A stretch of DNA of 64,000 nt, taken from assembly GCF_963676685.1 (NCBI RefSeq), contig NC_092344.1, positions 6,076,001-6,140,000 of the forward strand. The letters are read 5' to 3'. The translations under genes and the position numbers were made by a program. Under the pieces are notes generated by a model. That model was given only the letters and a program-made list of their open reading frames with translations, made no database searches and had not been told where the DNA came from. This DNA comes from Mytilus edulis. Lineage: Eukaryota. Shown in pieces: positions 10,246 to 63,487 of this stretch; the first letter of the stretch is position 1; the number at the start of each line of letters is the position of its first letter.

Positions 10246-10577
10246 AACAAATTATGTATTAATTCAATCTGTAAATGTATGCTTTAGTACTATTTAAAAT
10301 TGAGGTGGAAATTAAAAATCACAACATGCATTCATATATGTACAACAATATAAATATTTTGCAATGACGCAAACATTTTGATGGAACCCAGGTATAATCC
10401 GAGAAAACATGTATACCACAGTTTTTAATCTTTTTGTTTATTAATAAATTTAACCATATGATGATCAATTGAACATGTTAACATGGAATGAAAGCTTCTT
10501 ATTCTAGTACAGTAGTTATCATATTGTATGGATCAGAAGGTAAATGGTACCGTTTAATGTAATAAAAAAAGAAGGGA

Positions 10578-11231: not shown

Positions 11232-11395
11232 AATAGTTATCAAAGGTATCAAGCTTACAATTCGATATGCCAAACGCTGGTCTCTTCGAGACAAGACCAA
11301 CCAGTGACGCTCTTATCAAAAAAACCAATCAAGTATAAAGTTGAAGACCATTGTGCCAAATACGCCTAAGGTAATATATGCCTTGGATACGAAAC
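11232..11395 (-). mobile_element. Retrozyme family C fragment, ribozyme decayed
   Basis: Same AATAGTTATCAAAGGTA end and body as the other copies; core mutated. Confidence 0.7.
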
Positions 11396-12650
11396 TGTCC
11401 ATATCATCCAAACTGGTTCCCGATCGCAATGTTCAGTATGTTACACATATACCAATATAATAACGTAGTACCGGGAACCAGGATACATATCATCAAACTT
11501 ATAAAAGAAAGTTAGATTGTCTGAGGCAAATACAAACTGTCATAATTCATATGACAAATTCAGAGTAAAATACAGAAACGAAAACTTGGAGAACAAAATG
11601 TATCGACACAATTCTTGAACAATTTCAGTTCATTCATTAGCCCGACTACTAATATGTATCCCATGTGAGCGTATTTAATAAATCAACAAAACTGAAGTAG
11701 TGTACATAACCGATTTATTTACTTACATAACAACGCACCATATCACCTCGTACGATATTACCAATTATATTTAAAGTCACGAAGATCTGACGTCACAGAA
11801 TAGAATACGTAAACAGTAAATGTCGGCAAATAACTATTTGACAGTTCTTAGCGATTTTATAATAATTGGAATTATTTTCATTTTACAGCATTCCCCCGCG
11901 AGAGCATGAGCATGTGTTCTAAAGTCTACGGCATTGTGATGGCTTCTAATTATCTGTCACGAAAAAGGAGTAATTATAAGAGAAACAATACTTATTTAAT
12001 GGTCTTTTTCTTAATATCAACAAGGTTTTAAAATGTTTTGCAAAGAAAATCTGTTTCGCAATATCAAATCAGCGTTCTAATGCTATTTTTATTCACCAAA
12101 CAAGGGCCACAGAAGGGCATATAGAAAATAGACAATATCATTATAAACAATAACATATGCAATGCAATCTAGTTAATTGATATTTAGAAATAAAACACAC
12201 CAAAATAACAACAACATATTATATTTCAATGCATATGATGTTGACTCAAGAGCACAAAGTAAGTGTATTTTGATTATTAAAATAAACAGAAGACTCAAGT
12301 AGTGTGTGCCTTATAGAGATATATCTATAAAAGATATCTATTAAAATGAATTCAAGATTCATTTGAAACATATCTACACAACAAAAGGCATTTATTAGAG
12401 CCAATGTGCTCTTCAAAAGCGACCGACATATGCAAGTGCATCGGTACTATGTTAGACCTTGTATCAACAATGTTTTAAACCATGTAGTTATTGATATCAC
12501 GGATAGAGCAATCGATATGTTTGATAGCGTAATTAAAAGATGGCCTTGAAGAATCTCAATGCATTTTTTAATTACGTAATGATGACTGTAAACGGCGTTT
12601 GCGACAACAACTAATGGTGTAATCTTCGGATTTCAAATGTTTGGCTTTGA

Positions 12651-12692
12651 GCGTTCCTGATGAAGGTAAATCCAGAAAAGCGCTTCGGACGC
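12651..12692 (+). ncRNA. Type I hammerhead ribozyme (family D, 5' copy); predicted cleavage after C12686
   Basis: GCGTTC-CTGATGA-AGGTAAATCCA-GAAA-AGCGCT-TC-GGACGC; GCGUUC pairs with GGACGC (one G-U). Confidence 0.85.
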
Positions 12693-13005
12693 AATAAATT
12701 ATAAAACGTTTTGTTTTTCATTTTTTACATAACTGGGTCGATACCTCTGCTGGTGGACTATCAGTCCCCGAGGGTATCATCAGCTCAGTAGTCAGTGCTT
12801 CGGTACTGACATGATTTAACAAACTTTACTAAAATTGTCTGGTTCTAAATTTTGAAATTATTATATATGAAACTAAGGTTTCAACTCCCTCAGGCAAAGT
12901 TGGCTCTAGATGAATTTGGCTATTTATTTTAGGTATTTTTGACATAAAGCTCTTCAACGATTTTCGGTACTTATACATCTTCGGATTTCAAATGTTTGGC
13001 TTTGA

Positions 13006-13047
13006 GCGTTCCTGATGAAGGTAAATCCAGAAAAGCGCTTCGGACGC
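13006..13047 (+). ncRNA. Type I hammerhead ribozyme (family D, 3' copy); predicted cleavage after C13041
   Basis: Identical to 12651-12692, 355 nt downstream. Confidence 0.85.
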
Positions 13048-14061
13048 AATAAATTATAAAACGTGTTGTTTTCCATTTTTTACTACTGTACCAAACAAAA
13101 TAACAATTTATGAAATTACATATCTGTTTACAAGAACACAAATGGTATGGTACTAACATCGGAGACCCTTATAGAAGTATTCCTCATATAGTTGAGTTGT
13201 TTCTCTCGATTTTGGTTTGTAACCCGGATTTGATTCAGAAAAATCGATATATGACTATTTAACAGGGGTAATATACTACTGTTGCCTTTTACTATATATA
13301 ATTTTAAAATTTAATAAATTTTGGTAAACAATGACATTGCATCTTTCTGTACAGGTTGCTAGCAAACATAAATGATTTGTGTAGATCTTTGGACGCATTT
13401 AAATTAAAGTTTATACCAACAAGAAGTTATATTTTATAAATAGACCATATACCTTCTTTGTGATTAAAAATCCCTTACTACTGTTGCCAGTGATCTGTAT
13501 TCCAATATACACTGACTATGGTTTGATCAATGTATACTGTCAAAGGATCTCACACAAAGGATAATTTTGTGTTTCGTTAAGTTGATGTATATAATATTTT
13601 TGACCAGTTTATATCATTTACACTAAAGTGTGAATGACCAAGAGGTTATCAAGGAAGAATCAATACTAGAGCCGATAACCACTGGCTATCAAACTCGGTT
13701 AACAGCAAGCCACTGACTTTATATTTCCTACTGATCTTTATTTCGATATTTTCCTCTATCAATCTTGCTTTTATTCAGTTGCAGAATTAAATTTCAGTAG
13801 GAAAGAATAAACATCATCGCTAAATGTTTTAATATCGAAAATTTGTTGATCGTTACGTTTATTCAATCTATCCAATTCATACTATCCCTATCATGATTAT
13901 TCTCATTGATATTGCGACTTCTGTATTCATAAGCAGGAATACATACACATGTTTGTGTTACCTCCTTTACGATATAACTTTCCACGTCCATGTTTGACCA
14001 GTTTTCTTTATATAGCATGCACTTTCTCTTTGTGATTGGATATATCATATTATGCTATATA

Positions 14062-14240
14062 GTACCAGGATTGTAATTTAGTACGCCAGACACTCGTTTC
14101 GTCTACATAAGACTCATCAGTGACGCTCATATCAAAATATTTATAAAGCCAAACAAGTAAAAAGTTGAAGAGCATTGAGGATAAAAAATTCCAAAAAGTT
14201 GTGCCAAATACGGCTAAGGTAATCTATGCCTGGGATAAAG
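14062..14240 (-). mobile_element. Retrozyme family C fragment with hammerhead at 14083-14126 (stem III palindrome mutated)
   Basis: Near-identical to 62557-62735; core CTGATGA, GAAA and GTC retained. Confidence 0.82.
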
Positions 14241-15439: not shown

Positions 15440-15830
15440 CTTATCTGGATTCATCTGGATTTACATTCACCAGGAATGCTCAAACCCAAACCCAAATATT
15501 TTAAAGCCAGAGATGTGTATAAATAAGAATAGTAACATTCGTAGCTTTATGACTAAAATGGCCCTAAAATAATAACCAAATTCATGAAAGGTCAACCTCG
15601 CCTCTTATTAACATGGAATTTTAGATTTAGATGAATGTATTATGATTTATGTCAGTACCAAAGCACTGAACAGTGAGCTGATGATACTTGCGGGGGACTA
15701 ACAGTCCAACCAAGTGCTAACAAATGAAAATAATTAATAAAATATAACACCTTATAAATTTCGTGCATTCGAACCACTTTTCTGCATTCACCTTCACACG
15801 GAAAGCTTAAAGCTAAATATTTGACAGACA
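15440..15830 (-). mobile_element. Old, decayed family D retrozyme monomer with two dead hammerheads
   Basis: Ribozyme remnants near 15470 and 15797; internal match to the 12773-12815 segment at 15648-15690. Confidence 0.65.
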
Positions 15831-20760: not shown

Positions 20761-21399
20761 ATGCTTTAATAAACTGAAGAAAAAATTTCATTTATTCACA
20801 ACTAGGCCTTAAAAAGTTATGAAAAGATAGCGAAGACGTAAGTTCATAGGAATAATAGGGATTGTGGTATACCCGACTTTGAGAAAGCGAACCAACGATA
20901 CTAAATAAATATACTGGCGTTAATGATTTAAATTTAAAAAAAAAATGAAAACAAACCGTTATAAGTTTCATGCCTCCGAAAGTTTTTTTTCTGGATTTAC
21001 CTTCACCAAGGTAACCAAGGATGTATAAGAAACGAAACATATCAAGATCTAATTGACCAAATGAGGACTTATATTAATTTCCTATTCAACTCAAGTTCAA
21101 CTTTGAGGGAGTTTAAACGTATCTTTGGTTATACTAAATTGATAAACTCATAAACAGATAATAAAAAACCCGATTGTTTTAAATCATGTCTGTAATGAGG
21201 AACTTTTCATTAGCAATTGTATCACCAAAACTTACATTTCGGTTTGTTATGTCTAAATACGTATAGGGATACATTTATTTTTTCAGGATTTGATTTGTCA
21301 TAAACAATTTCCCCCCTTTTTTTAATTTTTCATCAAATAACAGGATGGCTAGAGTTCCAGGAAAAAAATCACTATAATGGATTTGATTGGTTTTCAAAA

Positions 21400-23460: not shown

Positions 23461-26400
23461 AAATAAATAACAACAGAATGCAAAAATTTAGATTCAATAT
23501 ATCACGTATCAATTATTTGTGGCGAATTAAAATCTGTACATGTAGCACAATATGTTAACATTTAAACTTTTGTTCCTGTATAACCTTAAGGGTTAAACCG
23601 TTTTTCAGTTTTTTCGTGTATTGCATAATATCACCGGTACCGCATGCAGACTTAAGGAATGAATGTTTGTCTAGTTTCATATTGTGTGCATGGTGTGTAT
23701 ATAACATGAACATCCAGTATATGAATAAATCATAATTTCCTTTTTTCTGTTTTTAAAGAACATAAAAGCAAATGATATATCATTCGTTGAACTTGTGTAG
23801 ATATGTTTAACATATCATTCAAAATTTACATGTTAAAATAGTTCTAGTTTGTGTTTAACCCTTGTCGAAAGGTTAATGTAAACATGCATATGAATATCTT
23901 TAATTCTGGTAACCTTCCACACATTAGGTCTATAAGAAAATTACATGTCTGTCTTTATATTTTAGCATTTTTTAATTATTTTTTTTTCATCTCTAAATTC
24001 GATTTTTGATGAGACTATAAATAAAGAAATGATAGTTTTCAGTTTATTAGAAATATTGATATGATTTAAAAAATCAGAATTATAGTGGAATTTTTATGTA
24101 GTTAGCCAAATCATTATATTTTTTTTAAATCATGTATAATGTACCACCTCTGGGACCTGTCTCTTCTCCTTGAAATAGGATTAACATATCCTTTGTAAGG
24201 CAAACGTAGTTAATGACTGTGAAATGGACTGTATAACAAGGTCATACAGTAGATCATTTCATTCACTAAAACCATACAATGGTCATATCATTATGAAATC
24301 ACAGTTCAGTTCAGTGGTTGGTTCTTGTTGGAGTTTAAAGCTAATAGTATTTTACCACTGCAATGAAGTACTGATCGGTAAAGTACATGTTATTTATTGT
24401 GGTATTTCACAGCTGAACTCATTTGTATTACTTAGATAAGATACAATTATAAAGATTATAACTTTAAACTATTTTTTGCCTTTAAAGCAATTTATAAGCA
24501 TTTAGTAAGCGTAGATTGCTGTATGTTAATACCAACTAGTTCGTGATTAGATTACCTGTAAATTGTAAATTGTTATTTTTGATAATATATGGCTTTTTAA
24601 CATTTAGCTGCCAGAATTTCAAATTTCTTTGGACACTAAAATACATTTCTTTTTCAGTGCCTTAAGGCTTCGTGGGTGTTTAAAATTAATCTATTCGTGA
24701 CAGAATAAAAATCACTCATAACGAGCACTGCAATGCGGATACTTCAGTCGTATTTTTCATTGCACATAGGATTAAAAACAATTCCTTTTGTTAATCGTAA
24801 CTTCATATCTTTTTCTAGTATATACGCCTCCGAAAGCAAATACCAAACACTGAGAGTACCTGGTTTTGCCGTAGTAGCTTTCGTATCACACACTGATCAG
24901 TACTTACCTCAAGTATTTCATGATTTATCATTTACAATCAAAAGAAAATGTTGTGTATGGTTAATGTTGATTATGTTTTCTTTGGTCGATTTCTGCTTTT
25001 TTCGCGAAACTCCTTGTAGGTCTTTGGTCATAACAGAAACATTCATTGCAGAAGTCAAAAACCATATGCGTGTTTTGATGGTTTAGACACGCTGATCTAG
25101 ACATTAACATGACTAAATATGTATTGCAATACAGTTATGATCCTAAATTATGTCGATGCTGATAGTTTGGCATGGTACAAGGTCATGTTTTTTCGTCCTG
25201 TTTATGACTTATCCGTTTACTGGTCGATATTTTACATTGGGAAAAAAAGGTTGATATTTATGAGTTGAAATTGACCTTGATCTATTCTTTGGTCGGTAGT
25301 TTGTGACTTTTGTATTTTTGTTAGATATTTGTGTGCTTATTTCGGATCTCTCAAGCCTTTTGATATTTTATTTATTATTTTTGGGTCGTTTTTTGTTTGT
25401 TGCTGTTCTGTTTTATCACTGTCGCTGGTTAAGTTACAAACAACTAAATACTTCATATAAATAATATAAATTTAGTGAAAAAATTAACAAAATTTCAATC
25501 CTGGTATCTAAGATGAGTTAACAAATAACGCTCGAAGCATTATTCTGTATGCAGCTTAACTTTGAACGCAAAATACAAAATCTTTTGAAACCCAGCGATG
25601 AACTATTAAAGTTCATTAAAAGAAAGACCACAATCCCTCTAAACTAAGTCAGCTTTGGCTCAGTTTGTTGAAACCTAAGTTTGTAAAGAGTTTATCGGTT
25701 TATAAATGGGAAAAGGAAGACATGTTTGGTATGAATTATGTTAGTTGCGAAGCACTGACTACTGGGCTAATGATACATACCTTCGGGACTATTGTCCACC
25801 AACAACTAACTTAGTGCTTTAAAATTAAAAAAAAAAACACTTTAAAGATTTTGTGCGTTTAAAGGCATTTTCTGGGTCTACCTTCATCGAGAGCAGTAAA
25901 ACCCAAATATTTTGAAATCAAGATATGTATAAAAGCCTGAGGAGAAAGATGAATAAAAAGGAAATAAAAGAATACAGCCTAAACCATTTAAGGTTGACTT
26001 TACCTTTACTTTATTGCATCAGATGAGCATCTGACTACTAATGTCTCTTTAGTGATAAAGATAGAAAAACATACGGTTGATAAGAGTTGATTTAAACGAA
26101 AAGAAAAAAATGTAGCCAAACCTGGACAGTCAGTGCTTTGTAGGATGGAGATTGGTACTTCAATTCGAATGTTAAAAAATAGCAAATTAAAAAAGTATAT
26201 CTCTATATTACCCTATCAGTACTGATGTACTGATTTATCTAATGGTAGACAAGGTTAGTAACAATCTACCATCATAGATAGAGATATCATAACTAGTAAT
26301 AGTTGTTCTGTATTTCACAATTGATGTATTTTCAGTGATGCTCGAGGCGAAATCTTTTTCGAAACCTTAACGTAAAAATACAAAATTTATTTTTAAAGAA

Positions 26401-26561: not shown

Positions 26562-26758
26562 TTTAGGCATAGATTACCTTAGCTGTATTTGACATAACTT
26601 TTAGGAATTTTGGTCCTTAATGCTTTTCAACTTCGTACTTTATTTGGCCTTTTTAATTTTTTTTGGATTCGAGCGTCACTGATGAGTCTTTTTTAGACGA
26701 AACTCGCGTCTGTCGTATATACAAAATTTAGTCCTGGTATCTATGATGAGTTTATTTA
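26562..26758 (+). mobile_element. Retrozyme family C fragment with near-intact hammerhead at 26673-26716
   Basis: GCGTCA-CTGATGA-GTCT ttttt AGAC-GAAA-CTCGCG-TC-TGTCGT; flanks align with the 62545 copy. Confidence 0.8.
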
Positions 26759-27407: not shown

Positions 27408-27485
27408 AATAGTTATCCCACTCGGACTTGGTGTGTCAGTGTTAGATCTTACACTGACACACCGCGTCCTTGTGGGATAACTATT
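27408..27485. repeat. 78-bp near-perfect palindrome (mini-MITE or hairpin)
   Basis: AATAGTTATCCCAC...GGTGTGTCAGTGT loop ACACTGACACACC...GTGGGATAACTATT. Confidence 0.85.
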
Positions 27486-29228: not shown

Positions 29229-29991
29229 CCGCTAGAAAAATTGTTCCAAAATTTTGAATTCAGTTCTACGTAATGAACATTTAAATGACACATAGTTTAC
29301 AAGTGAGAACAAATCTTATGTACAGGTAGCTAAACAATGTGTATAGATGTGAACAAATGTAATGTGAAACCAGTGCACACTTCACTAAACTAATTGTAAA
29401 CATGTTTACTCTACACGGCGTTTGGTGTGAACACGGCCTTAGTCAAAGATACCAGGTGTACCTTTTGTTACGCCATACACGCATTTCGTCTATATTAGAT
29501 TCATCAGTAGAATTTGAATCTAAACAGTTGGTATGCAAAACAAAATACTTTGAAATATAATGTGAAACCATACCATGGTTATATTCAATCACAGTTCAGT
29601 TCATTGGTTCATACTTTGTCGAGTTTGCATTCGATCGAGTTTCAATATTGTTACAACTACAATGTAGACTGGCAACAAACATTTGTGAGTGTTATACGTC
29701 ATTTTCATTTTGAACCTATATGTATTACTGAAATTAAATAAAAATTTATAGTTTATAACTTTTTATTAATTTTCCTTTTTACTTGTATGTAAATATAAAA
29801 TTAAAAGATATGGTATGGTTGCTGATGAGACACCTCTCAACAAGAGAAAATACTACACAGAAAAATAAAACTCTAAACCTAATGGACACATATTTGTATA
29901 ATTTACGAATGTACATTTTTAATAAAACAATCATCAAAGATTCCAGGCCTATCATTTTGAATACCAGAAGCTATTCTACAAAAGACTTTAA

Positions 29992-30240
29992 AGGGACGAC
30001 ATCAAAATCAATGAAGGATAAAAAAAAACTTAATTCATATAGTATTTTCATTGACCCCCTACCCCCCCCCCCCCCCCTCCCCTCTCTCTCAATTTACTTT
30101 TGGAAAAATTGATTGACCAATAATGATATGTATAAGTCGATGTCAAATGAACAAAATTGCAGCAATTTTGACCAACCCCACCCCCAAAGTATTTGAATTA
30201 AGTTTTTTTGATCCTTAATTGATTTTTTTATGTCGTCTCT
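29992..30240. mobile_element. 249-bp MITE with about 45-bp TIRs and TAA TSD
   Basis: AGGGACGACATCAAAATCAAT... and ...ATTGATTTTTTTATGTCGTCTCT, TAA on both sides. Confidence 0.8.
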
Positions 30241-31446
30241 TAATGACGCCCGAATGAAGAGCGTAGTAGACTGAAAATTCCAAATGGCTTTTCCAAAACC
30301 ACATCAAGGATATTTTAAATAAATACATGGTGATAATATTGTCTGCAAATTATTCACTTTTTATGAGATATGACTCAAAACAGTGGACTTCTTAAAGTGA
30401 CTTTAGTTTCAAGATTCTTTTGAAATTCACCTGATTTTACTCTATTTCAGGGGTTTTACGCTTTACAGGCGTTAAAATGTATAATAATGTCCAAATATCG
30501 AGCATATCAATCCGGATTCTTGAGTCAGTGTCTTCTTAGAAGAGAAAATCGACACCGGTTATGTATTTTATATGTTTCCTTCATTATTATTTGTACAGGT
30601 ACGAGTGGTATAGTCTTATTTAAATATTGCAAAAATGTCGCCTACAAAATTTAAATGCTGATATTGCACAATAGCCTCAACAGGATTTAAATCATAACAT
30701 ATATGTATATAAAACTAGTGAATCAATGTTTGGTATGCCTTATTTGGTACGGGTATAACAAAGGCGGGTGATTAAACCAGATATTTCAACACCAAATATC
30801 AAGTTCATGGGACTTATTTAATTACGCAAATTATCAAGGAAATATGTTAAAAGAGAAGATATGATAAGACTACTTTTTGAGCCCTAAAACTCGAATATAG
30901 AAAGGTGAAGTTATAGATCCGTCAGATGCGTTTTCACATGACTAAAGGCTTGCGGATATTAATATTCATATTTTCAAATTGTGCAGGACAAAATTGCTTC
31001 TGGGATTCTAATTTCGACAATTTAATGCAATACTACATTGCCAAAATAGGTTCTTAAAAACTGTTCACTAGTAATTAAATATGAGACGCAGCCTGATAAA
31101 AAAAGTTCTTTGCTACAAGAAAAGATAAGTCCTCTACTGAAATGTTGGTTACATAAAATTAAATAATTGACAGGAAATATTATCCCCATCCAGTTTTTAA
31201 TATCGTTATTGAGTATTTTCGGAATTAGAGTCTTGAATGATTTTAAGCTTTGAACCTTATAACTATTTGTTTATTTAAACGTCACTGACCAGGATGAGTA
31301 TTTGGAAGATGAAGCGTGCATCTTGCGTACAAAATTATAGGACTTGCATTTTTAATGATTTTCTTTTATTGGTATCATACATATTTTAAAATACTCATAT
31401 ATTTCCCTGCTTACATAAAACTTCAAAGGATTAATATGATGTATAG

Positions 31447-31682: not shown

Positions 31683-33094
31683 ATTCTTTGCCAATCCGTA
31701 AATTGCAGAATAAATACTACTGAAACTCGATCGGCGTGAAATCCACAAAGTATCAACCAATGAACTGAACTGCCTCTATGATATAATTAACTAAAAGTTC
31801 AACGTCGTATTTGATTTTGTCTACAACTAATAATTTGGGTACACATCTTGTTAAGATAAAGCCTTGAATCAGAACTGTTTCTGCTTTAAATTTACAATGC
31901 AACCTAAAAGCCCTTGCCATGTAATAAAGGTCAGTCCTTATTCCTTGTGCGGATTCGGGTGTAATTTGTCTATGTTTTGTTTGGTTTATATCAGCTCGTC
32001 AAAATTTGTGCAAGATTTTGAATTTTCAAATATGTTGGTCATACGCATCACTGAAGATACATTAGTTGTTTAAATGCGCACACATATGGTGCTATAAAAT
32101 TGTATGGCACCGTTAACATTATATTTTCAATATGTTGATGACTTTCTGTTTCCATCTTGGCATCTATGTTGATTTTAGTTATTCACATAAGTCTCTAGAC
32201 GATGTCATTCTATGTTTATTTATCAATAGAGCTAACATTATTTTATTAGGATTGAACAGTTTTTCTATTTTTGGAATTAATTTACAATAACATTGCTCTC
32301 ATACTTCCTACTTTGAATGAATTGAGAAATAAGACAGTTTAAATATAGACGATCTAATATATTTATAGTTTGATATGTAAATATAGAAATGTGGCAAGGA
32401 ACATATACAATCCGAAAGTGAATGACAATAAACAGCATAATTCCTAGACACATAAATTTGTGGTATCAATAGCACGTGATATGTAAATCACTTTTCGATC
32501 ACTGTCATCATATAAAACTACCTACAAGTGTTATAAATGACGAGACTTTAATTGAACATTAAATCTTAATCTTAATCTATACAAATGACTAGTATCTCAA
32601 ATTGAAATGTTTTAAACATCCGTAAAGTACCGTCGCCTTAATTAGGCTTTCCCAACAAAATACTGAATCGCTTTTTGTTTGTTTCATTTACTGAATCTAT
32701 TTCTGGCTAGCAAGTTGTCTGCATATGTCTGATTTAAGGTGAAATTTCCCTCAACCCGATATAAACTCACAAAACTAAAAATAAAGTTCAATTTTCAGTT
32801 TGAAAAAAAACTTCCTTTGATAAATTCACATGGTCTATTTTAAGTGACTATACATGAATCTAATTATATCTTTAGGAAATATTTAAAGTTCGACTTTGAT
32901 TTATATAATTATAGACATGATATAACATTTTTTTTAATTTTAGGCATATATTTTGAAGGGCTTATTAAAGCTGATCTGTTTGCCTGAATCATAAACAGGA
33001 AGTTGACTATGTTTGTCAGACTAAAGGAAAAAAATATTATTTAAATTCGTAAATTAACATCACTCAATGTTCACTTTTTTCGTTTTGTTCTATT

Positions 33095-33455
33095 GTTTAT
33101 TTGTTTCGCTGTCCTGTATGGTCTTCCATTCATTTGTATTGTAGTCCTGTCATGTAATGTTGTCATTTTAGTGTTATATTCAACATTGTCATTAAAGCGG
33201 AAGGTTTGGCTAGACACAAAACCAGGCCCAACCCACCATTTTTTTTCTTAAAATGTCCTGTACCAAGTCAGGAAAATAGCTATTGTTATCTTATAGGTTC
33301 TGTGTGTGTTGCATTTTAGTGTATTTGTTGTTTCGTTGTTCTATCCATTATATTTGATGTGTTTCCCTCAGTTTAAGTTTGTAACCCGGATTTGTTTTTT
33401 CTCAATTGATTTATGAATTTCGAACAGCGGTATACTCCTGTTCACTTTATTTACT
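33095..33455 (+). repeat. SINE-like family E (tail ...CAGCGGTATACTACTGTTGCCTTTATTT)
   Basis: Other copies at 13188-13292, 46065-46290, 49200-49395 and 56905-57290. Confidence 0.85.
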
Positions 33456-33724: not shown

Positions 33725-34620
33725 TTCGTTTACCTATGTCTGTTCACATTAATAACAAACATTAAGAAGTTACAGTTTCACATCGTTGTCAATAAAATGA
33801 AATGTTATATCATTGTCATACAAGTGAGAGGTTTAGCTCGATATAAAACCAGATTTAATCCACCAATTTCTTCATAAGAAAGTGCCTGTACCAAGTCAGG
33901 AATATGACAGTTGTTATAAATTTGTTTGATGTGTTTGACCTTTTAATTTTTTTTTCAAGTGTTTTACTGATTTTTGAATATATTTAGAATCAACTAAATT
34001 CATATGTCTGCAGTTTAAGTGTATTATTTATTTTTGAATATAATTAACAGTATTTTGAAAGTCTTTTCTCCATTTAAGAAGTCATAAAAAAGATTCCTTA
34101 AGTACCATCTTTTCCATTTGTACATAGTTGATATAATGGGGAATATATCACATTGGATGTATACCAGGGTAAATTACTCTTATTTCGATTGTTTAATTTG
34201 TCGCTAATTAATCTACTGGAATGACATCCGTGTGCCGGATTCGAGATTTGATACAAATAAACCGAAATTATTGAATGAAGTCCTTCAAGTGAGTGAAAAG
34301 AGGGAAACTATCATGTGTCACCTAAATCGTTTACCTATGTCTGTTCACATAAATAACAAACATTAAGAAGTTACATTTTCACATCGTTGTCAATATAATG
34401 AAATTTAATGCTATTGTCATACACGTGAGCGGTTTAGCTAGCTATAAAACCAGGTTGAATAATCAACCATTTTATTAGAAAATGTCTGTACTAAGTTAGG
34501 AATATGACAGTTGTTATCCATTCGTTTGGTGTGTTTGGGCTTTTGATTTTGTCATTTGAGTAGGGACTTTCCGATTTGAATTTTCCTCGTAGTTCGGTAT
34601 TTTTGTGATTGAATATTTTC
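33725..34620 (+). repeat. Two locally duplicated family B copies (33725-33955, 34326-34620) beside degenerate about 60-bp repeats
   Basis: Both begin tcgtttacctatgtctgttcacat..aataacaaacattaagaagttaca. Confidence 0.8.
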
Positions 34621-40237: not shown

Positions 40238-40339
40238 AAACGTCTCGGTAAATAGCTTACACATAATAACAGTGAATAATCTACAGAAAATGTAGTCACT
40301 ACATAGTTATATATATCGTTGATGAGAATTTGGAAAGAT

Positions 40340-40485
40340 CTTTTCGTATGTTTTATCCTCAATCCTCTTCAACTTTGTTCTTTATTTTTCCTCTTATCTC
40401 TTTTTATTCGAGCGTCACTGCAGTCTTTTTTTTTAAGAAAAAGAATCGCGCGTCTGGCGTACGCAATGATAAGACTGTTATCTTT
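40340..40485 (+). mobile_element. Retrozyme family C fragment, ribozyme decayed
   Basis: cgagcgtcactg...cgcgcgtctggcgtac retained; core disrupted. Confidence 0.6.
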
Positions 40486-40634: not shown

Positions 40635-40945
40635 TTGAGATTGTGACACAGTGATGACTACTGTACCCATATTTTGACTATTTTACCTATTATGTTTGTT
40701 TTGTTCACACATCGTTGTAGAACTAACGGAATTTGTTGTGACTGTCATACAAGTGAGAGGTTTAGAGTTATAAAACCAAGTTCAATCCACCATTTTCTAC
40801 ATTTGAAAATGCCTGTACCAAGCCAGGAATATGACAGTTGTCCATTCGTTTGATGAGTTTGAATATTCGAGTTTGCCCTTTGATTAGGAACTTTCCGTTT
40901 TGAATTTTCCTCGGCGTTCAGTATTTTTGTGATTTGACTTTTTAT
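40635..40945 (+). repeat. SINE-like family B
   Basis: Aligns with 10578-11050; source of spurious ORF 40745..41035. Confidence 0.85.
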
Positions 40946-45686: not shown

Positions 45687-45692
45687 TATATA

Positions 45693-46050
45693 CAATTACT
45701 GTCTTTTGATGAGGTAAATATGCGGTTTTATTGACTTTTGAAAAAAATATATTCACTGAGGCCGACGGCCGAAGTGAATATCAGTTTTTCAAAAGTCAAT
45801 TAAACCCCATATTTACCGAAACAAAAGACAGTAATTGTTTTATTCCATATTCCGAGCGAAAATCATGTATTAAAAATGTCAAACATATACCAAAACAAAT
45901 TGTACATGAAACATTTTACCATAACGTTGCAGGTAAAAGCGCGTGACGTTTATCGCGGTGAATAACACTTTCTTAGGTGAATATTCTTTTTTATTCAAAA
46001 TCAAATTCATATAGAGAAACCTACTAAAATAATACCAATATGAAATAATA
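45693..46050. mobile_element. Palindrome-headed non-autonomous element (Crypton-like design)
   Basis: About 145-bp inverted repeat 45693-45838 centred on gaggccgacggccgaa, followed by a unique arm. Class assignment is inference. Confidence 0.55.
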
Positions 46051-46064
46051 TTATATTATTCATT

Positions 46065-46290
46065 CAGCCAACAGCAGTATACCGCCGTTCAAAAGTCATA
46101 AATCGATTGAGAGAAAACAAATACGGGTTATAAAATAAAACCGAGGGAAACACATCAACTATAAGAGGAAAACAACAGAACAATAGAAACACTGAAGTGC
46201 AGCAAAAAAAAAACGACAATGCAACATACATAGAAACGATCAATAAGATAACAACTGCCATTTTCCTGACTTGTTACAGGGTTGTTTTTT
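46065..46290 (-). repeat. SINE-like family E fragment
   Basis: Aligns with 56905-57140. Confidence 0.85.
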
Positions 46291-49199: not shown

Positions 49200-49395
49200 G
49201 AATATAGGAATATAGCAGTTGTTATCTAAAAGTTCGTTTCTATGTATGTTACATCGGGTTTTTTATGTTCTACTTCGGTGTTTCTTTTTCACTTATAGTT
49301 GATATGTTCCTCTCGGTTTTAGTTTGTAACCCGCATTTGTTTTCTCTTAATCGATTATGTCTTTTGAATAGCGGTATACTACTCTTGCCTTCATA
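49200..49395 (+). repeat. SINE-like family E fragment
   Basis: Aligns with 33265-33455. Confidence 0.8.
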
Positions 49396-51626: not shown

Positions 51627-52349
51627 GATTACAGAACTAGGAAATAACTGTATGAACCTGATGAAGTGAAATTACAGAACTAGGAAGTAATTGTATGAAC
51701 ATGATGAAATGAAATTACAGAACTAAGAAATAACTGTATGAACCTGATGAAGTGAATTACAGAACTAGAAAATAACTGTATGAACCTGATGAAGTGAATT
51801 ACAGAACTAGGAAGTAACTGTATGAACCTGATGAAGTGAATTACAGAACTAGGAAGTAATTGTATGAACCCGATGAAGTGAATTACAGAACTAGGAAATA
51901 ACTGTATGAACCTGATGAAGTGAATTACAGAACTAGGAAGTAATTGTATGAACCTGATGAAGTGAATTACAGAACTAGGAAATAACTGTATGAACCTGAT
52001 AAAGTGAATTACAGAACTAGGAAGTAATTGTATGAACCTGATGAAGTGAATTACAGAACTAGGAAATAACTGTATGAACCTGATGAAGTGAATTACAGAA
52101 CTAGGAAGTAATTGTATGAACCTGATGAAGTGAATTACAGAACTAGGAAATAACTGTATGAACCTGATGAAGTGAATTACAGAACTAGGAAGTAATTGTA
52201 TGAACCTGATGAAGTGAATTACAGAACTAGGAAATAACTGTATGAACCTGATGAAGTGAATTACAGAACTAGGAAATAACTGTATAAACCTGATGAAGTG
52301 AATTACAGAACTAGGAAATAACTGTATGAACATGATGAAGTGAATTACA
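51627..52349. repeat. 42-bp tandem repeat, about 17 copies (GAATTACAGAACTAGGAARTAAYTGTATGAACCTGATGAAGT)
   Basis: Directly visible; accounts for the 217-aa 14-residue-repeat ORF on the minus strand. Confidence 0.97.
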
Positions 52350-52898: not shown

Positions 52899-53494
52899 AT
52901 CATAACGTTATATCATAACGTTCTTATAACGTAACTGGTAGTCCACACTTTTACGTTCCTACAATGTTAAATCACAACGTTCTCACAACGAAACAGAAAC
53001 GTTCCTGGAACATTTCCTGAACGTTTTTGTGTTTTGTGGGTAATTACGCGTTTCTGCGGGTAGATTGTCAGCCTATACGAATGGTTGCAACTTCATGATG
53101 TAAAGTTGATCTGTGTCGATGAAAGTACATGCTTTCTTAATTCTATTTTATCTTTTTAATTGTGTTTTATTAAAAAAAAATTAAATCAAATTCTTAATCT
53201 CGAGCAAAACTCCAGAAACAAGTTTGGTCTGCAAAGAATTATTATGCATTAGGATCTTTAAATGTTTTGAAAAATAAAGTGAACATACCAAAACAAAATG
53301 TGTTGAAAAAGTGTTGAGCTTTATATGGTACGAAGTATGCTTGCTATCTACTATGTACTGAGTAGGTGTGTTACATGCTGTTTAAGTAGTAAGTGTTGTA
53401 TCTGCTGTTTACAAAGTATATGTTGTCAATTGTCGTAGGTGTGTTACATGCTGTGTGCAGAATAGGTGTGTTCTTCAACTTTTTTTAGTTTCGA

Positions 53495-53538
53495 GTGTCA
53501 CTGATGAGTCTTTTGTAGATGAAACGCGCGTCTGGTGT
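53495..53538 (+). ncRNA. Type I hammerhead ribozyme (family C fragment 53470-53560)
   Basis: GTGTCA-CTGATGA-GTCT tttgt AGAT-GAAA-CGCGCG-TC-TGGTGT; core intact, extra G-U pairs. Confidence 0.8.
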
Positions 53539-56500
53539 AAATACAAACTTTAATCCTGAAAATGATTGTATTCACTTGTGTATTATTTTGATCTATCGTA
53601 TGCTATATTCCATGTAGGTTAAAGTAAATCAAAGCTCTTCTGTCCTTGGTAACTTAATATACTTTGTGTAATCCCATTGCGATATTCATTCTTAAACCAT
53701 AACCTTTTCAAAGCTTACATTATGTTACAAGGCATGCTGTGCACAAATTATTCAAAATTATAAAGTAAATACTAACCTGCAAAATTAAAAATAAGTCGCT
53801 ACACTATGTAATTAAACTTGTATAAAAAAAAAATAGCATTTCCGACGTTCAAACTAAATAAGACTAAATCATTAATTCAGCGTTTTGAAAGGCAAGTACC
53901 TTAGTAGGAGATGGGTTAGGCATGTACTAGGCGTGATCAGCAATGAAACGGAAAAGAATAGCAACATTAAAAGTAAAACAAGGATGAATCGTTTCCTTGG
54001 CATACTTTTTAAACAATTACATAAAATCAAAAAGACCTAAAAAAAATCCAATTACACATGTTTGCTATTTACTAAATGCAAATGCATGTTTATATCGGGT
54101 TAAATGGCCGCTGATAGTACTTGGAGGTCATTTCCAAAGTTATTTAAATGGCGTCTAGAATAAAGTACACTCGAAAGGATCACACATATCATCAATTCCA
54201 TGCTTTGTTAATTCAGTGTTTATTTGAGAGACTTTTTTGTAATTTGAATATATGTTTTAGTATGATAAAAATCGAATGTGAGACATTGAGTGAAATCGAT
54301 GAACATTAAAATAAATTTGACAGTTTATACCCATTAAAAAAAGTGTGTTTTTATAATTATAAATTATTTCATCGGCCTATTTTTAAAAATTAACTACAAA
54401 TTGAAATAGAAAATAAATATGGCATACAAAGAAATGATCAACGGGAGCATTTGGAAAGTATTTTTCATAAGTATTTTTTCCATTCGTGATAAACAATAGG
54501 TGAGCAAGTTTTAATCTAAACATCTGTTTTAAATACCTCTCAGATAGAGTTCAAATAACTGTCAAAAGAAACCCGTTTGGCCATTTATGATACAAAGATT
54601 TTAGAATGATTACTAGATAAATTGATTGATTGATCGAATAATTTGTGTTTATCCTAGAGATATTTGTGACAATGTCGGTGAGCACCGTCGACTTTCGAAA
54701 GGAAATGTACAATCCTGCTCAAACAAAATTACCACCATGTTTAAAATCTCATTTATCGATTGATAAGTGCACCTCAATTTTTACGGTAACAAACAGGTAG
54801 TCGCATGAACCTCGCCATTCTTTAGAACGGTTGTATATTTGCATGTATCAGAATTAAGAACTGTATCAGGACCAGATCACTACTTTACTGTAAGCATATC
54901 CTGTATTAAATGCATCATCGTCAAGACGAATCCAGAGAAATAAAACATAATATAATGTTTATAAGATGCAACATGATACAAATATATATGCATGGCCTAG
55001 TTCTTGATATATCATAAGCGTACATTTTGTTAGTTCACTGATTGATTTAAAAAGGCACAAGTCTAAACAAAACTAGGGTCAATTTATAAGTTATGTTAAG
55101 TGTTAGGCTTTTGTCATAGATTTGTTTTTTTCTTCCGAGGAATTAATTATACATTGCAACTCCCTGATGATAGCCTCTGTTATGTTTGTTCATAAATTTG
55201 GTCGATATTTATAACCTTGACATATATTATACAGTGTTATAGAAACTAGTCTTTTTTGAAGACAGTGTTTTGACCATAACAGTTTGCTTTCGACTTGTGA
55301 GTTAGAATATCCTTGTGGTATCTTTCGTGTCTCTTTTGACCATAAGATGTCATTTCTTGTTTTTTCTTTCTTTTTTTTTTCTTTTTTTTTATTGGTTGTT
55401 TATCATATATCGGTTTTTACTTTGACCTCTGAATTTAAGCAACACATTGCTTTACATGTGCTTTCATAGGTTTCACATGTTTTCAGTTATTAGCTTTTGA
55501 TAATGTTTGTTTTTTTACTTTCAGGTCCAAGCCCTATTTCTTGCTCTCAAAACAAAATATTTCAAAGTATGTTAAGATTCAGCTTGCAGCTGATGATGTC
55601 AAACGAGGAAACTTGAAATCAATATAGATTAAGTAATAAGAATATGAACTTCTAACAGTTTGCATTTATTATTACAAATTAACAGTATGATTTCACCTGC
55701 CTATTTGATCAATGAAATATATAATGTACAAAGACATGATCTACGGGAGCAAGTATCTTCAATGATTTTTATCAAACTAGTCTATTATAGAAACAATTGG
55801 TGAGAAATATTTTTTTTAATATAAGTCACGTTATGAACAAATAACTGTCAAAAGAAAAAAGTTTGATCTTTAATTTTATTTAAATTTTGAAAAAAATCTT
55901 TCTTCAAAAGTTTGTAACAAATTAACAAAACGACAAACGGATCTGTTTGTTCTTTCTTTTAAAATAGATCGCAATTGTTCAATACATTTATGCATAAATA
56001 TATAAAACAATAAATGTACAAGTTAACTATATACAGAAGGCAGCTTTTGAAAAATATACCAAAACCGTTTAAAACAATAGAATTATGCATATATATATAA
56101 AGATTACAGGAAAACTATTTACAAAATGGAGTTTTAAAAACATTAAGTAAACCGTTTCAAACAATAACAGTAAGCATAAGGGAGCAAGCATCTAATTTTT
56201 AAGGGAGGGGGTATGAAGTCAGAAAATTTAATATTTTTTCAAAGCTACCAATCAAACTAATTTGGACTCGGATGAGAGGGTTGTCTCATTGGCACTCATA
56301 CCACATCTTCTTACATTTATCGGCTACAATGTCAGTCCTGGTTTATAAAACCTAATTTTTTTTTATAAGATGCAAGTTGGGAATACATAAAGTCAACATT
56401 AATGTCACAAGTCTTAGTTGAAGGCCGTACGGTGACCTATAGTGTTAATGTCTGTGTCATTTTGGTCTTTTGTGGATAGTTGTCTCATTTGGCAATCATA

Positions 56501-56904: not shown

Positions 56905-57290
56905 AAATAAACAGTAGCTATATATAGTATACCGCTATTTAAAAGTCATAAATCGATTGAGAGCAAACATATCCGGGTTACAAATTATAACTGAGGGAAA
57001 CACATCATGATCAAATATAAGAGGAAAACAACGAAACAGCAGAAATACTAAAGTGCAACAAAAAACAAACGACAATGCAACACACACAGACACGAACTAT
57101 AAGATAACAATTGCCATTTTCCTGACTTGGTATAGGACATTTTAAGAAACAAATAGTAGGTTGAACCTGGTTTTGTGGCTAGCTAAACCTCCTGCTTTCA
57201 TGGCATTGTTAAATATAACACTAAAATGACAACATCACATGACAAGACTACAATACAAATAAATGAAAAAAACTTTCAGGATAGAGAAAT
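56905..57290 (-). repeat. SINE-like family E
   Basis: Reverse complement of 33095-33455. Confidence 0.85.
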
Positions 57291-57328: not shown

Positions 57329-57495
57329 AATAGTTATCAAAGGTACCAGGCTTATAATTTAATACACCGGAAGCGTGGATCGTCTACATAAGACTCACCA
57401 GTGCACTCATGTCAAATAGGTAACGAAAGCCAAACAAAGATAAAGAGCATTGGTGACCAAAAATTCCCCAAAAGTGTGCCAAATACGGCTACAGT
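57329..57495 (-). mobile_element. Retrozyme family C fragment, ribozyme decayed
   Basis: Aligns with the 62545 copy; core reads CTGGTGA and GATC. Confidence 0.7.
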
Positions 57496-59074
57496 TCTTA
57501 TTTATAATATTGGAATTTTATATTTTTGTAATTTGGGTTTCATGTTTTTATTCTTTTACATGCTTACCATCAGTTGACAAATTACATGGTGTCATTGCAC
57601 TAAACGTTACTTTTTTATCCGAATTTTCAATGAAACAGAAAAGAGTAAAAAAATCATTGGGAATGAACGGGGATTTTTTTTTAACTTTTTGTTTAATTAG
57701 AATATATGTAAGTCAGATAAATTAATGTAATGTGTAAAGCGGAAGTGTCATGTATTAAAAAAGAAAAAAATAGTGTGCATACTTATTTGTACTTCTCAGT
57801 ACCAGTAGGTTGATATTTTTAACGTGTGAAGTATATCTTGGTTTATGATGCGATATTAAGTATTCAGCAGATTAAACTGGATTTTACAGAGTAATAATTT
57901 AAATATAAACACCTATCTCCAAATTCAATCCAAAAAGAGGAAGTCCATAAACACAAAAAAAAAATGTTATCAACCAGCAGAACGATTGAAAAATCACTGT
58001 ATTATTTCTGACTTGGCACAGGTATTTTCTGAAGAAAATGATGGGTTGATCCTGGTGGTAGTTGGCTAAACCTTCCACTTGTATGACAGTATATATAGTT
58101 TAAAGCCAAATCTGGTGACTTTCACAAGGTCGTCCAGACGCACAACGTACCTAGATAAAAATTCAAAAACTCTGAGAGCAACATTGCAAATAATTTATTT
58201 TGTCTTTGTAATAAATCCTGTATATAAAGTAAAGCATTTACTGATGTTTTCATAACTCAACACAATAATGTATGTATCAATGACTATATGCTTCACCCGC
58301 CAATTTTTATTGCTGATTTTTGTCATGTTTTTAAGATGAAAGTGTAGTTTTGATATGGATTTTGAGAAGAATATGTTTAATTTTGCTACATCTTGATATT
58401 TATTTGAAAGGAAGGAAAAGGGAATACGTACAAGCCTACAACTCAATACTTAAATCAATTTTGATTGCGATTGGTTCTTAACAATCATATATGTATGTAT
58501 CTACCAATGCTACTATATGACATTTAGAACATAGAATTATTAAAATGCTTTGACAAATTAAAGTTTATCCAGCGTTACAATGTACTTGAGTTGTCAACAA
58601 TCGCAAACATGGAAAACCGGTAAAAGTACCTGTCAGCCTGTAGGTGCACTGGTAAATGTTCAGTATAGATGAATTAGATAACACTCGAACAACACAGCAA
58701 AAATAAAAGACTAATGGTCAACACTCCGTCTTCAATTATATACGTTGGTTTCTATAAAATATCAACAATCAACCCCTAATTTAGACAATTTATGTAACAT
58801 ATAACAGAGACTATTAAAGAGTTAAAATCAATCTTTGGTTTCTCAGAAGACAAAACCAAATATAAGATATTTTTGAATTGACACCGGTACTTGTTAGATA
58901 TTAAACTTCCGCCTTTTCTCTCAATCAGAAGACTAATAAAAGCGAATACTTGGAAACATGAAAAAACTGTTAAAGCACAAGTAAAGATATTTGCTTCTTA
59001 AATGAAGTATTACATTAAAACTGCACCATCAAGGTCACACTGCAAAAATATGAATTATTCTAAATACTAAGGAA

Positions 59075-59260
59075 TTCCTTATCCCAGTCAGATAACCTTA
59101 GCCGTATTTGGCACACTTTTGGGGAATTTTTGTATCATCAATGTTCTTCATCTTTGTTTGGCTTTCGTTACTTTTTTTACATGAGTGCAATGGTGAGTCT
59201 ATGTAGACGAAACACGCCTCTTGCGTGTTTAATTATAAACCTGGTACCTTTGATAACTAT
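59075..59260 (+). mobile_element. Retrozyme family C fragment, ribozyme decayed; inverted duplicate of 57329-57495
   Basis: Shares private variants with the 57329 copy. Confidence 0.7.
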
Positions 59261-61662: not shown

Positions 61663-62501
61663 TAGAGGACTTAAACTGGCTCTTGTGAAACTCCAAATAG
61701 AACATCTAAAGGGTAGATAGAGGACTTAAACTGGCTCTTGTGAAACTCCAAATAGAACATCTAAAGGGGTAGATAGAGGACTTAAACTGGCTCTTGTGAA
61801 ACTCCAAATAGAACATCTAAAGGGGTAGATAGAGGACTTAAACTGGCTCTTGTGAAACTCCAAATAGAACATCTAAAGGGGTAGATAGAGGACTTAAACT
61901 GGCTCTTGTGAAACTCCAAATAGAATATCTAAAGGGTAGATAGAGGACTTAAACTGGCTCTTGTGAAACTCTAAATAGAACATCTAAAGGGTAGATATAG
62001 AGGACTTAAACTGGCTCTTGTGAAACTCCAAATAGAACATCTAAAGGGGTAGATAGAGGACTTAAACTGGCTCTTGTGAAACTCCAAATAGAACATCTAA
62101 AGGGGTAGATAGAGGACTTAAACTGGCTCTTGTGAAACTCCAAATAGAACATCTAAAGGGGTAGATAGAGGACTTAAACTGGCTCTTGTGAAACTCCAAA
62201 TAGAACATCTAAAGGGGTAGATAGAGGACTTAAACTGGCTCTTGTGAAACTCCAAATAGAACATCTAAAGGGTAGATAGAGGACTTAAACTGGCTCTTGT
62301 GAAACTCCAAATAGAACATCTAAAGGGGTAGATAGAGGACTTAAACTGGCTCTTGTGAAACTCCAAATAGAACATCTAAAGGGTAGATATAGAGGACTTA
62401 ACCTGGCTCTTGTGAAACTCCAAATAGAACATCTAAAAGGGTAGATAGAGGACTTAAACGGGCTCTTGTGAAACTCTAAATAGAATATCTAAAGGGTAGA
62501 T
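61663..62501. repeat. 55-57-bp tandem repeat, 15 copies (GATAGAGGACTTAAACTGGCTCTTGTGAAACTCCAAATAGAACATCTAAAGGGGTA)
   Basis: Head-to-tail near-identical units, no unique spacers. Confidence 0.97.
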
Positions 62502-62544
62502 GTATGTCCTACTAGGACTGATTGGGTTCTGCTGCTCATCAATA

Positions 62545-62850
62545 TAGGTATCAAAGGTACCAGGATTATACTTTAGTACGCCAGACGCGCGTTTCGTCTA
62601 CATAAGACTCATCAGTGACGCTCATATCAAAATATTTATAAAGCCAAACAAGTACAAAGTTGAAGAGCATTGAGGATCCAAAATTCCAAAAAGTTGTGCC
62701 AAATAATGCTAAGTTAATCTATGTCTGGGATAAGAAAATCCTTAGTTTTTCCAAAAATTCAAAGTTTTGTAAACAGGAAATTTATAAAAATGACCACATT
62801 ATTGATATTCATGTCAACACCGAAGTGTTGACTACTGGGCTGGTGATACA
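62545..62850 (-). mobile_element. Hammerhead retrozyme family C, 5'-truncated copy with an intact ribozyme
   Basis: Longest copy of a repeat seen at least 9 times in the window; ribozyme at 62578-62621 and UUCG hairpin at 62813-62832. Confidence 0.85.
62578..62621 (-). ncRNA. Type I hammerhead ribozyme (family C), canonical GUC site
   Basis: Minus strand GCGTCA-CTGATGA-GTCT tatgt AGAC-GAAA-CGCGCG-TC-TGGCGT; all three stems form; stem III palindrome ACGCGCGT. Confidence 0.9.
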
Positions 62851-62958
62851 TACATATTATGAAGTCCTTTATAATGTTGTTTCTTTCACTCTATAATGTG
62901 CCATTTTAAACAAATTTTAAAAATAGGTTGTGTTTTTCTTTAAGGTGTTGATTTATGA

Positions 62959-63487
62959 TGACAATGTCGGTTCAAAACATAACATTATGACAAAAGAGAT
63001 GATTTCAGCTTCTGAATTGTGAACTTTCCATTTTTATGTAGCAACATTCCAGCAGAGCCTGCATACGGAGTATATATCTCCAAATTGATACATATTCCCG
63101 GGCTTGTATTTCCTACCATAATTTCCTTGATAGTGGGTTGCTTATCACAAGGAATCTATCAAACTAAGAGTTCCAAATGGCGAAGTTGAAATCTTCCAAT
63201 GGTAAATTTTACGAACGCCATCACGAGTTGGTTATTGAATAACCGTTTCACATAAGCTATTGGATATGTTCCTTATATCGTAATAACAATCCCCTTCTCT
63301 TTTCACGGATGTGACCTACCGAAGTATTACTGTTCCGGAGCACTTGAGATCACTGGGGTTCGTGTTGCGTAGTCTTTAGTTTTCTATGTTGTTTATGTGT
63401 ACTATTATTTGTCTGTTTGCCTTTTTCTTTTTTAACCATGACTTTTTATTTTCGATTGTCCCTCTGGTATCGTTCGCCCCTCTTTTT
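62959..63487 (+). mobile_element. Decayed Penelope-like retroelement: RT C-terminal/thumb region plus 3' non-coding tail
   Basis: Translation YDKRDDFSF*IVNFPFLCSNIPAEPAYGVYISKLI /frameshift/ YSRACISYHNFLDSGLLITRNLSN*EFQMAKLKSSNGKFYERHHELV. The tail motif recurs near 41020-41058 and 55280-55340. Confidence 0.75.

Follow-up and report, generated by a model that had tools for sequence, protein, structure and literature searches.

Non-LTR retrozymes of the mussel Mytilus galloprovincialis were described by Cervera and de la Pena in 2020 (PMC7229834), who found that a cloned mussel repeat underwent co-transcriptional cleavage, with a rate of about 0.1 per min, and that the RNA of a mussel retrozyme was mostly circular, while the need for a dimer was placed in amphibians. 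According to the same source the mussel hammerheads do not have most of the letters of the loop 1-loop 2 contact, and large target-site duplications are mentioned for retrozymes 'when present', that is, as optional; no helper is named for the mussel retrozymes in the accessible part of the paper. Retrozyme repeats are presented in the accessible text of a 2020 review (PMC7761336) as having no conserved motif that points to a helper, and in the supplement of a 2016 paper the M. galloprovincialis retrozyme appears as a label only (375 nt). The use of Penelope machinery by retrozymes was proposed in 2020 and has been argued for frogs in a 2026 preprint (bioRxiv 10.64898/2026.07.22.740005). A dimeric design of the type I hammerhead with a short palindromic stem III has also been described (PMC4209133).

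The stretch of DNA analysed here (the window) comprises 64,000 nucleotides of a Mytilus edulis contig (C1, 6076001-6140000), and its features are listed in Table 1. The focal element is a 5'-truncated solo copy of a mussel non-LTR retrozyme, a known kind of repeat to which it was matched by the description in PMC7229834 rather than by alignment. On the basis of sequence, predicted fold and position, we consider it likely that the 355-bp non-autonomous unit from which this copy derives is copied by the reverse transcriptase of Naiad elements docking on a 67-nt stem-loop common to both. The repeat itself is thus of a known kind, and the link to the Naiad fold and the common end point are the new part; a literature search, with some supplements and subscription literature outside its range, found no statement of a link between the Naiad fold and retrozymes.

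Table 1. Coordinates of the retrozyme copies and associated features in the window
Feature	Position	Strand	Details
Focal copy	62544..62849	-	5'-truncated solo retrozyme, unit 50-355 of 355, subfamily 2a; 97.7% to 2a consensus; HMM E 5e-111
Focal type I hammerhead	62578..62621	-	stem I 6 bp, stem II 4 bp, stem III 2 bp; RF00163 33 bits, E 2.4e-4; pair check
Focal hammerhead sites	C3 at 62615; predicted cut after C17 at 62584	-	pair check
Palindromic stem III and loop, ACGCGCGU	62585..62592	-	8-bp duplex possible between two hammerheads; predicted duplex -13.3 kcal/mol
Focal tail	62544..62577	-	from hammerhead to fixed insertion 3' end (unit position 355)
Remnant of Naiad-type 5' stem-loop	62832..62849	-	3' strands only; remainder gone through 5' truncation
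8-bp hairpin with cUUCGg tetraloop, sense strand	62813..62832	-	sequence and fold
2a copy	14062..14238	-	unit 166-342; core intact; stem III palindrome broken; predicted cut 14089; 96.6% to 2a consensus
2b copy	26565..26750	+	unit 174-end; core intact; one stem I mismatch; palindrome broken; predicted cut 26710; 96% to 2b consensus
Short 2b copy	53481..53558	+	core letters and palindrome intact; G-U-weakened helices; predicted cut 53532; 90% to 2b consensus
Old copy (11270)	11233..11396	-	fixed 3' end present; five core changes
Old fragment (29470)	29443..29543	-	C17 changed; stem I broken
Eleventh copy (29950)	29931..30006	-	core destroyed, six changes; HMM E 9e-4
Old fragment (31280)	31217..31348	+	A15.1 changed and 5-nt insertion within core
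Old fragment (40408)	40325..40485	+	three core changes
Dead retrozyme piece (57365)	57330..57495	-	within 3' UTR of old Naiad-B-type element; three core changes
Naiad-B-type 3' end continuing the 57365 piece	56925..57264	-	77-80% to Naiad B 4078-4543
Inverted local duplicate of the 57365 piece (59180)	59041..59260	+	about 100 nt of unique flank in common; without Naiad 3' end; 88-89% identity over piece and flank; two core changes
Sister subfamily 1 array	12622..13083	+	1.3 tandem units; two intact hammerheads 355 nt apart; cuts 12686, 13041
Complete Naiad-type 5' stem-loop, sole one in window	12725..12791	+	directly after upstream unit's end; 83% to Naiad C start, E 9e-12; alignment

A profile HMM of the full unit was compared with the window and recovered all ten places at which a preliminary description of this DNA had seen hammerhead copies, said to number at least nine, together with an eleventh (29931-30006, minus strand); E values ranged from 5e-111 to 9e-4, the best match in the reversed window used as control having an E of 2.5. 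Screening with the Rfam model Hammerhead_1 (RF00163) gave scores of 33 bits at 62578-62621 (minus strand), 23.8 at 53495-53538 (plus strand) and 23.2 at 26673-26716 (plus strand), so that the best copy in the window lies one bit below the gathering score of 34 bits. The window copies are real type I hammerheads. All 12 core letters were retained at 62578, 53495, 26673 and 14083 and were altered in the other seven copies, among them the six previously described as decayed (11270, 29470, 31280, 40408, 57365 and 59180). The intact cores reported at 62578 and 53495 were confirmed, the latter being weakened by G-U pairs, four of them in stem I and one at 10.1-11.1; it is predicted to be the least foldable of the four intact-core copies. 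At 26673 and 14083, previously termed near-intact, the core proved to be complete and it was the palindrome of stem III, present as ACGCGCGU at 62578 and 53495, that was found to be broken. The idea of a single family in all stages of decay was not borne out, as the copies are split over several subfamilies and those at 57365 and 59180 represent a piece from a Naiad 3' UTR. Nor is this a 'second' family distinct from a 'first' one at 12622-13083: homology extends over the whole unit (E 3e-40), and the latter is subfamily 1 of the same element. The motif noted earlier is real, and it represents the tail end of a mobile unit, 355 bp in length, which had been overlooked.

Thousands of places in the genome were found to match this unit, many of them head-to-tail arrays with a tandem period of 355, and the top matches were spread over most large contigs. 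Each unit carries a type I hammerhead and has a GC content of 39%; the tandem unit of 150-450 bp with a GC content below 50% that characterises retrozymes is seen at the level of the family, the focal copy being a truncated solo. Four subfamilies (1, 2a, 2b and 3) could be aligned over the whole unit, the length of which differs among them through indels; the copies at 62578 and 14083 are young members of 2a, and those at 26673 and 53495 belong to the sister subfamily 2b. The exact 37-letter core occurs 7,135 times in the 1.37-Gb genome and a looser intact-core pattern (core and palindrome) 21,977 times, with no occurrence of either in the reversed controls. Older fragments of subfamilies 1 and 3 were also seen in the window at 15454-15824 (minus), 20940-21008 (minus), 25617-25932 (minus) and 31980-32122 (plus). 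The retrozyme profile gave 15 matches in the 64-kb window compared with seven in 200 kb of random stretches, and the window thus looks several-fold enriched.

All 12 core letters are invariant over the four subfamily consensuses, compared with 77 of 190 positions mid-unit. Among young copies genome-wide, differences per site amounted to 2.4% in the core and to 4.7% in the tail beside it (the latter figure taking in variants inherited from source copies), and 7,703 of 10,274 copies were intact over the 12 core sites, against 4,258 of 7,629 over 12 tail sites. Better conservation of the core than of its flanks, which the preliminary description had named in its refuting condition, was thus observed both between consensuses and in young copies; this points to selection on the source elements, a quarter of the copies having already decayed. 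Copy-level core rates of 1.1% versus 3.4% obtained from sampled loci were dropped in favour of the genome counts, as those loci had been selected by their cores.

Stem III contains an 8-nt palindrome in four different forms across the subfamilies, and of the 181 cores with one of the 20 commonest forms listed (a sample enriched for exact cores) 155 were palindromic, five such forms being represented. The predicted energy of the stem III duplex is -13.3 kcal/mol, as opposed to +2.4 kcal/mol for the 2-bp hairpin. Cleavage of these hammerheads as dimers, as previously suggested, is plausible from this modelling without being absolute: the palindromic, unstable stem III, the duplex energy and the design described in PMC4209133 all fit, but activity of the monomer type has been published (PMC7229834). 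The active monomer fold was calculated to lie 5-9 kcal/mol above the ensemble (secondary structure only, without tertiary contacts), and the consensus circle is predicted to hide the hammerhead.

The ends of the insertions were examined in 40 arrays, which were the first listed on the contig of the window (C1) outside the window and were chosen only by exact core (two pairs of rows are duplicates). It was observed that 37 of the 40 terminate at unit position 353-355, while their 5' starts are scattered from unit position 1 to 281 and 25 of them fall below one unit length. Among the best 30 BLAST loci, 29 terminate at 354-355 and the remaining one has the same end after an internal deletion. 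As this fixed 3' end lies 40 nt past the cut site, it is not made by the hammerhead. Target-site duplications of at least 6 letters were present in 4 of the 40 arrays as compared to 3.0 in shuffles, which is not above chance, and there was no poly(A) tail. At another locus (L082, 92-118, minus strand) a 27-nt retrozyme 3' end was seen downstream of a Naiad A frame, an extreme 5' truncation with the usual end.

The retrozyme unit was found to open with a covarying 67-nt RNA stem-loop common to the starts of three Naiad (Penelope-like) families which have no hammerhead. The unit start is closest to family C (86% identity over 71 nt, E 2e-18). In the Naiad families the motif directly follows the end of the upstream repeat, and it is present in 39 of 50 loci from the Naiad search and absent from the other 11, a count in which truncated loci are not set apart. 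RNAalifold, applied to nine sequences (six retrozyme and three Naiad), predicted a bulged stem-loop, to which it assigned a covariation term of -2.55. In this alignment 98% of cells pair and 8 of 22 pairs show two-sided changes; none of 500 shuffles was as good, and slid controls reached 33-54%. As the fold was derived from the same nine related sequences that were used for the pair counts, and the two-sided changes come mostly from one or two Naiad rows, these counts support an RNA structure and do not prove it. Across the four subfamily consensuses 51 of the 67 positions of the fold are invariant, compared with the 77 of 190 mid-unit.

Terminal ends were located 4-8 nt before the first stem in 27 of 46 cases for Naiad A, 40 of 53 for B and 29 of 38 for C, and in the retrozyme in 79 of 118 for subfamily 2a, 32 of 42 for 2b, six of six for subfamily 3 and two of four for subfamily 1, so that the distance from end to fold is constant in seven families despite different upstream sequence. 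The retrozyme shares with Naiad both the putative recognition sequence and the insertion end, as expected of a non-autonomous partner. The motif also opens 12 published Naiad consensus sequences in the supplement of PMC8557442, where the 10-letter core was found 12 times, 11 of them at Naiad 5' ends, the twelfth Naiad having the core across a line break; the Naiad sheet of this source has at least 54 rows, and the exact motif is therefore not universal. In Naiad A (L141, 1952-2045) an extra hairpin was seen inside the shared fold, and Naiad-1_Skow has an insert at the same place in the published supplement. A pseudoknot in the fold was considered and not counted, its 5' strand being invariant and its pairing failing in some Naiads; an apparent antisense hammerhead in the first 60 nt of the unit was rejected as the reverse strand of the stem-loop, which has no A6 in 2a and no GAAA in subfamily 1. 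The labels Skow and Pfla among the published Naiads presumably stand for hemichordates.

Many Penelope-like elements were identified in a GIY-YIG search of the genome. When the retrozyme profile was applied to 20 of these loci, a match was found at the 5' end of the only element whose endonuclease is N-terminal, and this element is a Naiad by domain order and by its CxC and DKA motifs. A protein search then distinguished three Naiad families (A, B and C), in which long open frames are numerous. A Pfam GIY-YIG domain lies at 179-269 of 1053 in A and at 138-226 of 1007 in B (0.1 bit under the cut-off), and in C an RVT_1 match at 645-854 of 1000 (under the cut-off) accompanies a GIY motif visible N-terminally; CxC and DKA motifs were seen in the translations of A and C. 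Family A is nearly letter for letter the Naiad_Mgal of the PMC8557442 supplement. No sense hammerhead core was found in one copy each of Naiad A, B and C, with B carrying a dead retrozyme piece. A Naiad C 3' fragment (83%, 73%) occupies 62959-63486 (plus strand), at a distance of 110 nt from the 5' end of the focal copy and oriented away from it; being more diverged than the retrozyme copy, it is probably an older, separate insertion. At least ten further Naiad A, B or C 3' ends were noted in the window, at 10568-11094, 15947-16092, 33073-33450, 33781-33936, 34382-34610, 40635-40943, 46066-46281, 49292-49394, 55280-55337 and 57981-58090.

The piece carried by Naiad B accounts for two of the copies in the window. 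Relatives of the copy at 59180 continue into a common 3' sequence which ends like Naiad family B, and 24 of 26 of them match the Naiad B 3' region past the retrozyme piece. The piece was present in all seven Naiad B loci sampled, about 73% identical and about 500 nt before the 3' end. The copy at 57365 is such a passenger in a Naiad 3' UTR and that at 59180 is its inverted local duplicate; a separate, solo-jumping 'A6G dead-ribozyme subfamily' was accordingly discarded, those copies being passengers. As the passenger ends at the normal retrozyme end and does not have the unit start, it is read as an old insertion into Naiad and would not mark the origin of the retrozyme. In all seven young Naiad B copies the core of the passenger is dead, two lineages having each a set of five changes of its own, and it is changed in 18 of 23 older copies, one of which keeps the palindrome (seven rows, namely four plain 2a, two without a Naiad end and one duplicate, were left out).

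Taken in order, the steps of the proposed mechanism would be as follows. The family is transcribed, mostly from one strand, and reads cross the head-to-tail joint, as was observed at the level of the family. Hammerheads in the tandem transcript would then cut, likely as dimers through the palindromic stem III, and a host ligase would close the monomers into circles. The shared fold and shared end point suggest priming by Naiad just upstream of the stem-loop: the Naiad protein would likely attach to the stem-loop, make a nick in A/T-rich DNA and begin its copy 4-8 nt upstream. The reverse transcriptase would go round or along its template and drop off at random, giving the observed pattern of fixed 3' ends, scattered 5' ends and non-integer arrays. 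Solo copies such as the focal one, in which the stem-loop is incomplete and no second hammerhead is at hand, are likely to be dead ends and to decay.

Expression was assessed in two RNA runs of one study, chosen by species label, which may represent another individual or species than the genome. The family accounted for 6,010 reads among the 8.7 million records of one run and for 6,882 among the 8.3 million of the other; 361 and 399 reads, respectively, spanned the main head-to-tail joint, and the cut site was also crossed, although tandem transcripts and circles give the same reads. First mates favoured the plus strand 2- to 6-fold, which is the sense strand of the element if the library is of the usual stranded type. 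Depth on the focal copy was about 1,200-3,200 (reads at family level) and zero on its unique flanks in both runs. The preliminary description had proposed that intact solo copies cut any sense transcript that crosses them, and had suggested looking for coverage breaks at GUC; no strand-specific drop was found, the fall in depth across GUC being equal on the two strands (0.72 vs 0.72 and 0.73 vs 0.68), and read ends did not pile up on the focal copy in either run.

Cutting of host transcripts by dispersed solo hammerheads at a level relevant to the host is accordingly unsupported and appears unlikely, even though about 22,000 copies retain core and palindrome, the mussel clone of PMC7229834 cleaved co-transcriptionally, Xenopus retrozymes are reported to be depleted in genes (bioRxiv 10.64898/2026.07.22.740005) and 59 read starts formed a weak pile 2 nt from the predicted cut at a tandem locus in one run. 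Against these stand the uphill fold of the monomer, the silent flanks of the focal copy and the core changes in a quarter of the young copies. The loss of the sense core from the passenger in Naiad mRNA looks as if an active copy harmed its carrier, but it may still be neutral, since the rate of 5 of 12 in Naiad UTRs is not clearly above the 21-25% seen elsewhere. In the search for host genes 80 of the 111 stop-free frames of the window were scanned, giving two weak matches below the cut-off, neither of them credible, and no host gene was detected; an 84-codon stop-free frame at 62642-62896 was outside the scan.

It is similarly unlikely that the stem-loop is a promoter or translation element from the Naiad 5' end which the retrozyme needs for its expression, with the fixed end set in some other way. 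The stem-loop does immediately precede the start codon of Naiad, the letters at its centre do not vary, and retrozymes have been described as highly expressed without known promoters (PMC7761336). However, two-sided changes in two stems indicate RNA structure rather than a DNA promoter, the retrozyme has no evident coding role, and the distance between end and fold is constant in seven families with unrelated upstream sequence.

We regard it as improbable that the 67-nt fold is itself a previously undescribed self-cleaving ribozyme which cuts a few bases upstream of the first stem. The central letters of the fold are invariant in the 12 published Naiads, an Rfam search of the fold in four loci gave no match at E values up to 5 (for which reason an HDV-like or twister identity was rejected), and ends occur at a fixed distance; all three are compatible with a ribozyme. 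Hundreds of reads nevertheless cross the unit joint in the two RNA runs and ends do not pile up there, which counts against it. Were the fold a ribozyme, it would be the Naiad counterpart of the Penelope hammerheads, would explain Naiads without hammerheads and would make a fixed RNA start for copying, and the mussel circle would carry two different ribozymes.

The 2020 and 2026 papers suggest in general terms that retrozymes are mobilised by a LINE or by Penelope elements which carry hammerheads and a C-terminal endonuclease; for the present repeat this has very little probability. Such Penelope elements with long open frames and hammerheads of their own are present in the genome, and Xenopus retrozymes match the pLTRs of elements of this type (bioRxiv 10.64898/2026.07.22.740005). 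In 19 loci, however, no match to the retrozyme 5' fold was seen at an element start and the HMM matches looked like separate retrozyme copies, the hammerheads of these elements are of different sequence, and the retrozyme insertions have neither a poly(A) tail nor target-site duplications above chance. Growth as a satellite by unequal exchange at the DNA level, without an RNA intermediate, is hardly credible and already largely refuted by the end pattern, for although arrays of at least five units exist and this route is discussed for arrays in the 2026 preprint, most of the arrays examined (25 of 40) are under one unit, with a common 3' end and scattered 5' ends, and the top matches lie on most large contigs.

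Several other repeats were recorded. C-terminal-endonuclease Penelope-like loci (L081, L085, L086, L090, L092, L095, L096, L099 and L100) comprise several families with long open frames, and most have a minimal hammerhead shortly past the frame. A different hammerhead-like tandem repeat of unrelated sequence, with a period of about 440 bp, was present at L075 (99 and 541), L098 (97 and 537), L091 and L097. The window also contains two young minisatellites, one at 61663-62501 (56 bp x 15), which ends 42 nt from the 3' end of the focal copy, and one at 51628-52349 (42 bp x 17), in which most units have CTGATGA without the rest of a hammerhead, as well as long inverted repeats of 86-87% (2294-2747, 27408-27485 and 45692-45838), possibly foldback elements.

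The question addressed by these results is which enzyme spreads animal retrozymes. From the covarying fold a candidate helper clade emerges, namely Naiad, in which family C is the closest match and long open frames are plentiful; the fold also places the presumed start of copying within a few bases. If correct, this would be the first defined cis signal for Naiads, which dominate bivalve genomes, and a compact natural case of a small RNA circle serving as template for a telomerase-related reverse transcriptase. In addition, the dead piece in the Naiad B 3' UTR provides a natural test of a sense hammerhead inside a transcript under selection.

Compared with known systems, the family closely resembles the M. 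galloprovincialis non-LTR retrozymes (PMC7229834) in its type I hammerhead, tandem repeats (350-390 bp in that species), low GC and high expression; a 353-nt monomer construct, related hammerhead families within one genome and a consensus circle predicted to hide the hammerhead are further points of likeness. It differs in number, with about 5,000 copies reported for that species and 21,977 intact cores in at least four subfamilies here. The core, the 6-bp stem I, the 4-bp stem II and the short stem III with palindromic loop are those of the dimeric metazoan type I hammerheads (RF00163, PMC4209133). With Naiads (Craig et al. 2021, PMC8557442) the retrozyme shares 5' truncation, partial tandems and the 5' motif, whereas Naiads encode an enzyme and have no hammerhead; the 5' stem-loop and a non-autonomous partner are absent from the description in the accessible part of that paper. 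The Poseidon element of the green anole was found in vitro to start reverse transcription internally at a stem-loop and to cleave an A/T-rich target (Frangieh et al. 2024, PMC11167929); hammerhead cleavage was not required, and no read ends were found at the cut site, as here. Poseidon belongs to another clade (C-terminal endonuclease) and has its binding motif inside the ORF, and the likeness drawn here is one of described behaviour. Finally, Xenopus retrozymes (Li et al. 2026, bioRxiv 10.64898/2026.07.22.740005) resemble the mussel case in the use of Penelope machinery and in having terminal sequence in common with it; there the link is to the pLTRs of annotated frog elements, with no molluscs sampled in the available text, whereas in the mussel the putative helper is without a hammerhead, and what it has in common with the retrozyme is a separate fold located at the predicted priming point.
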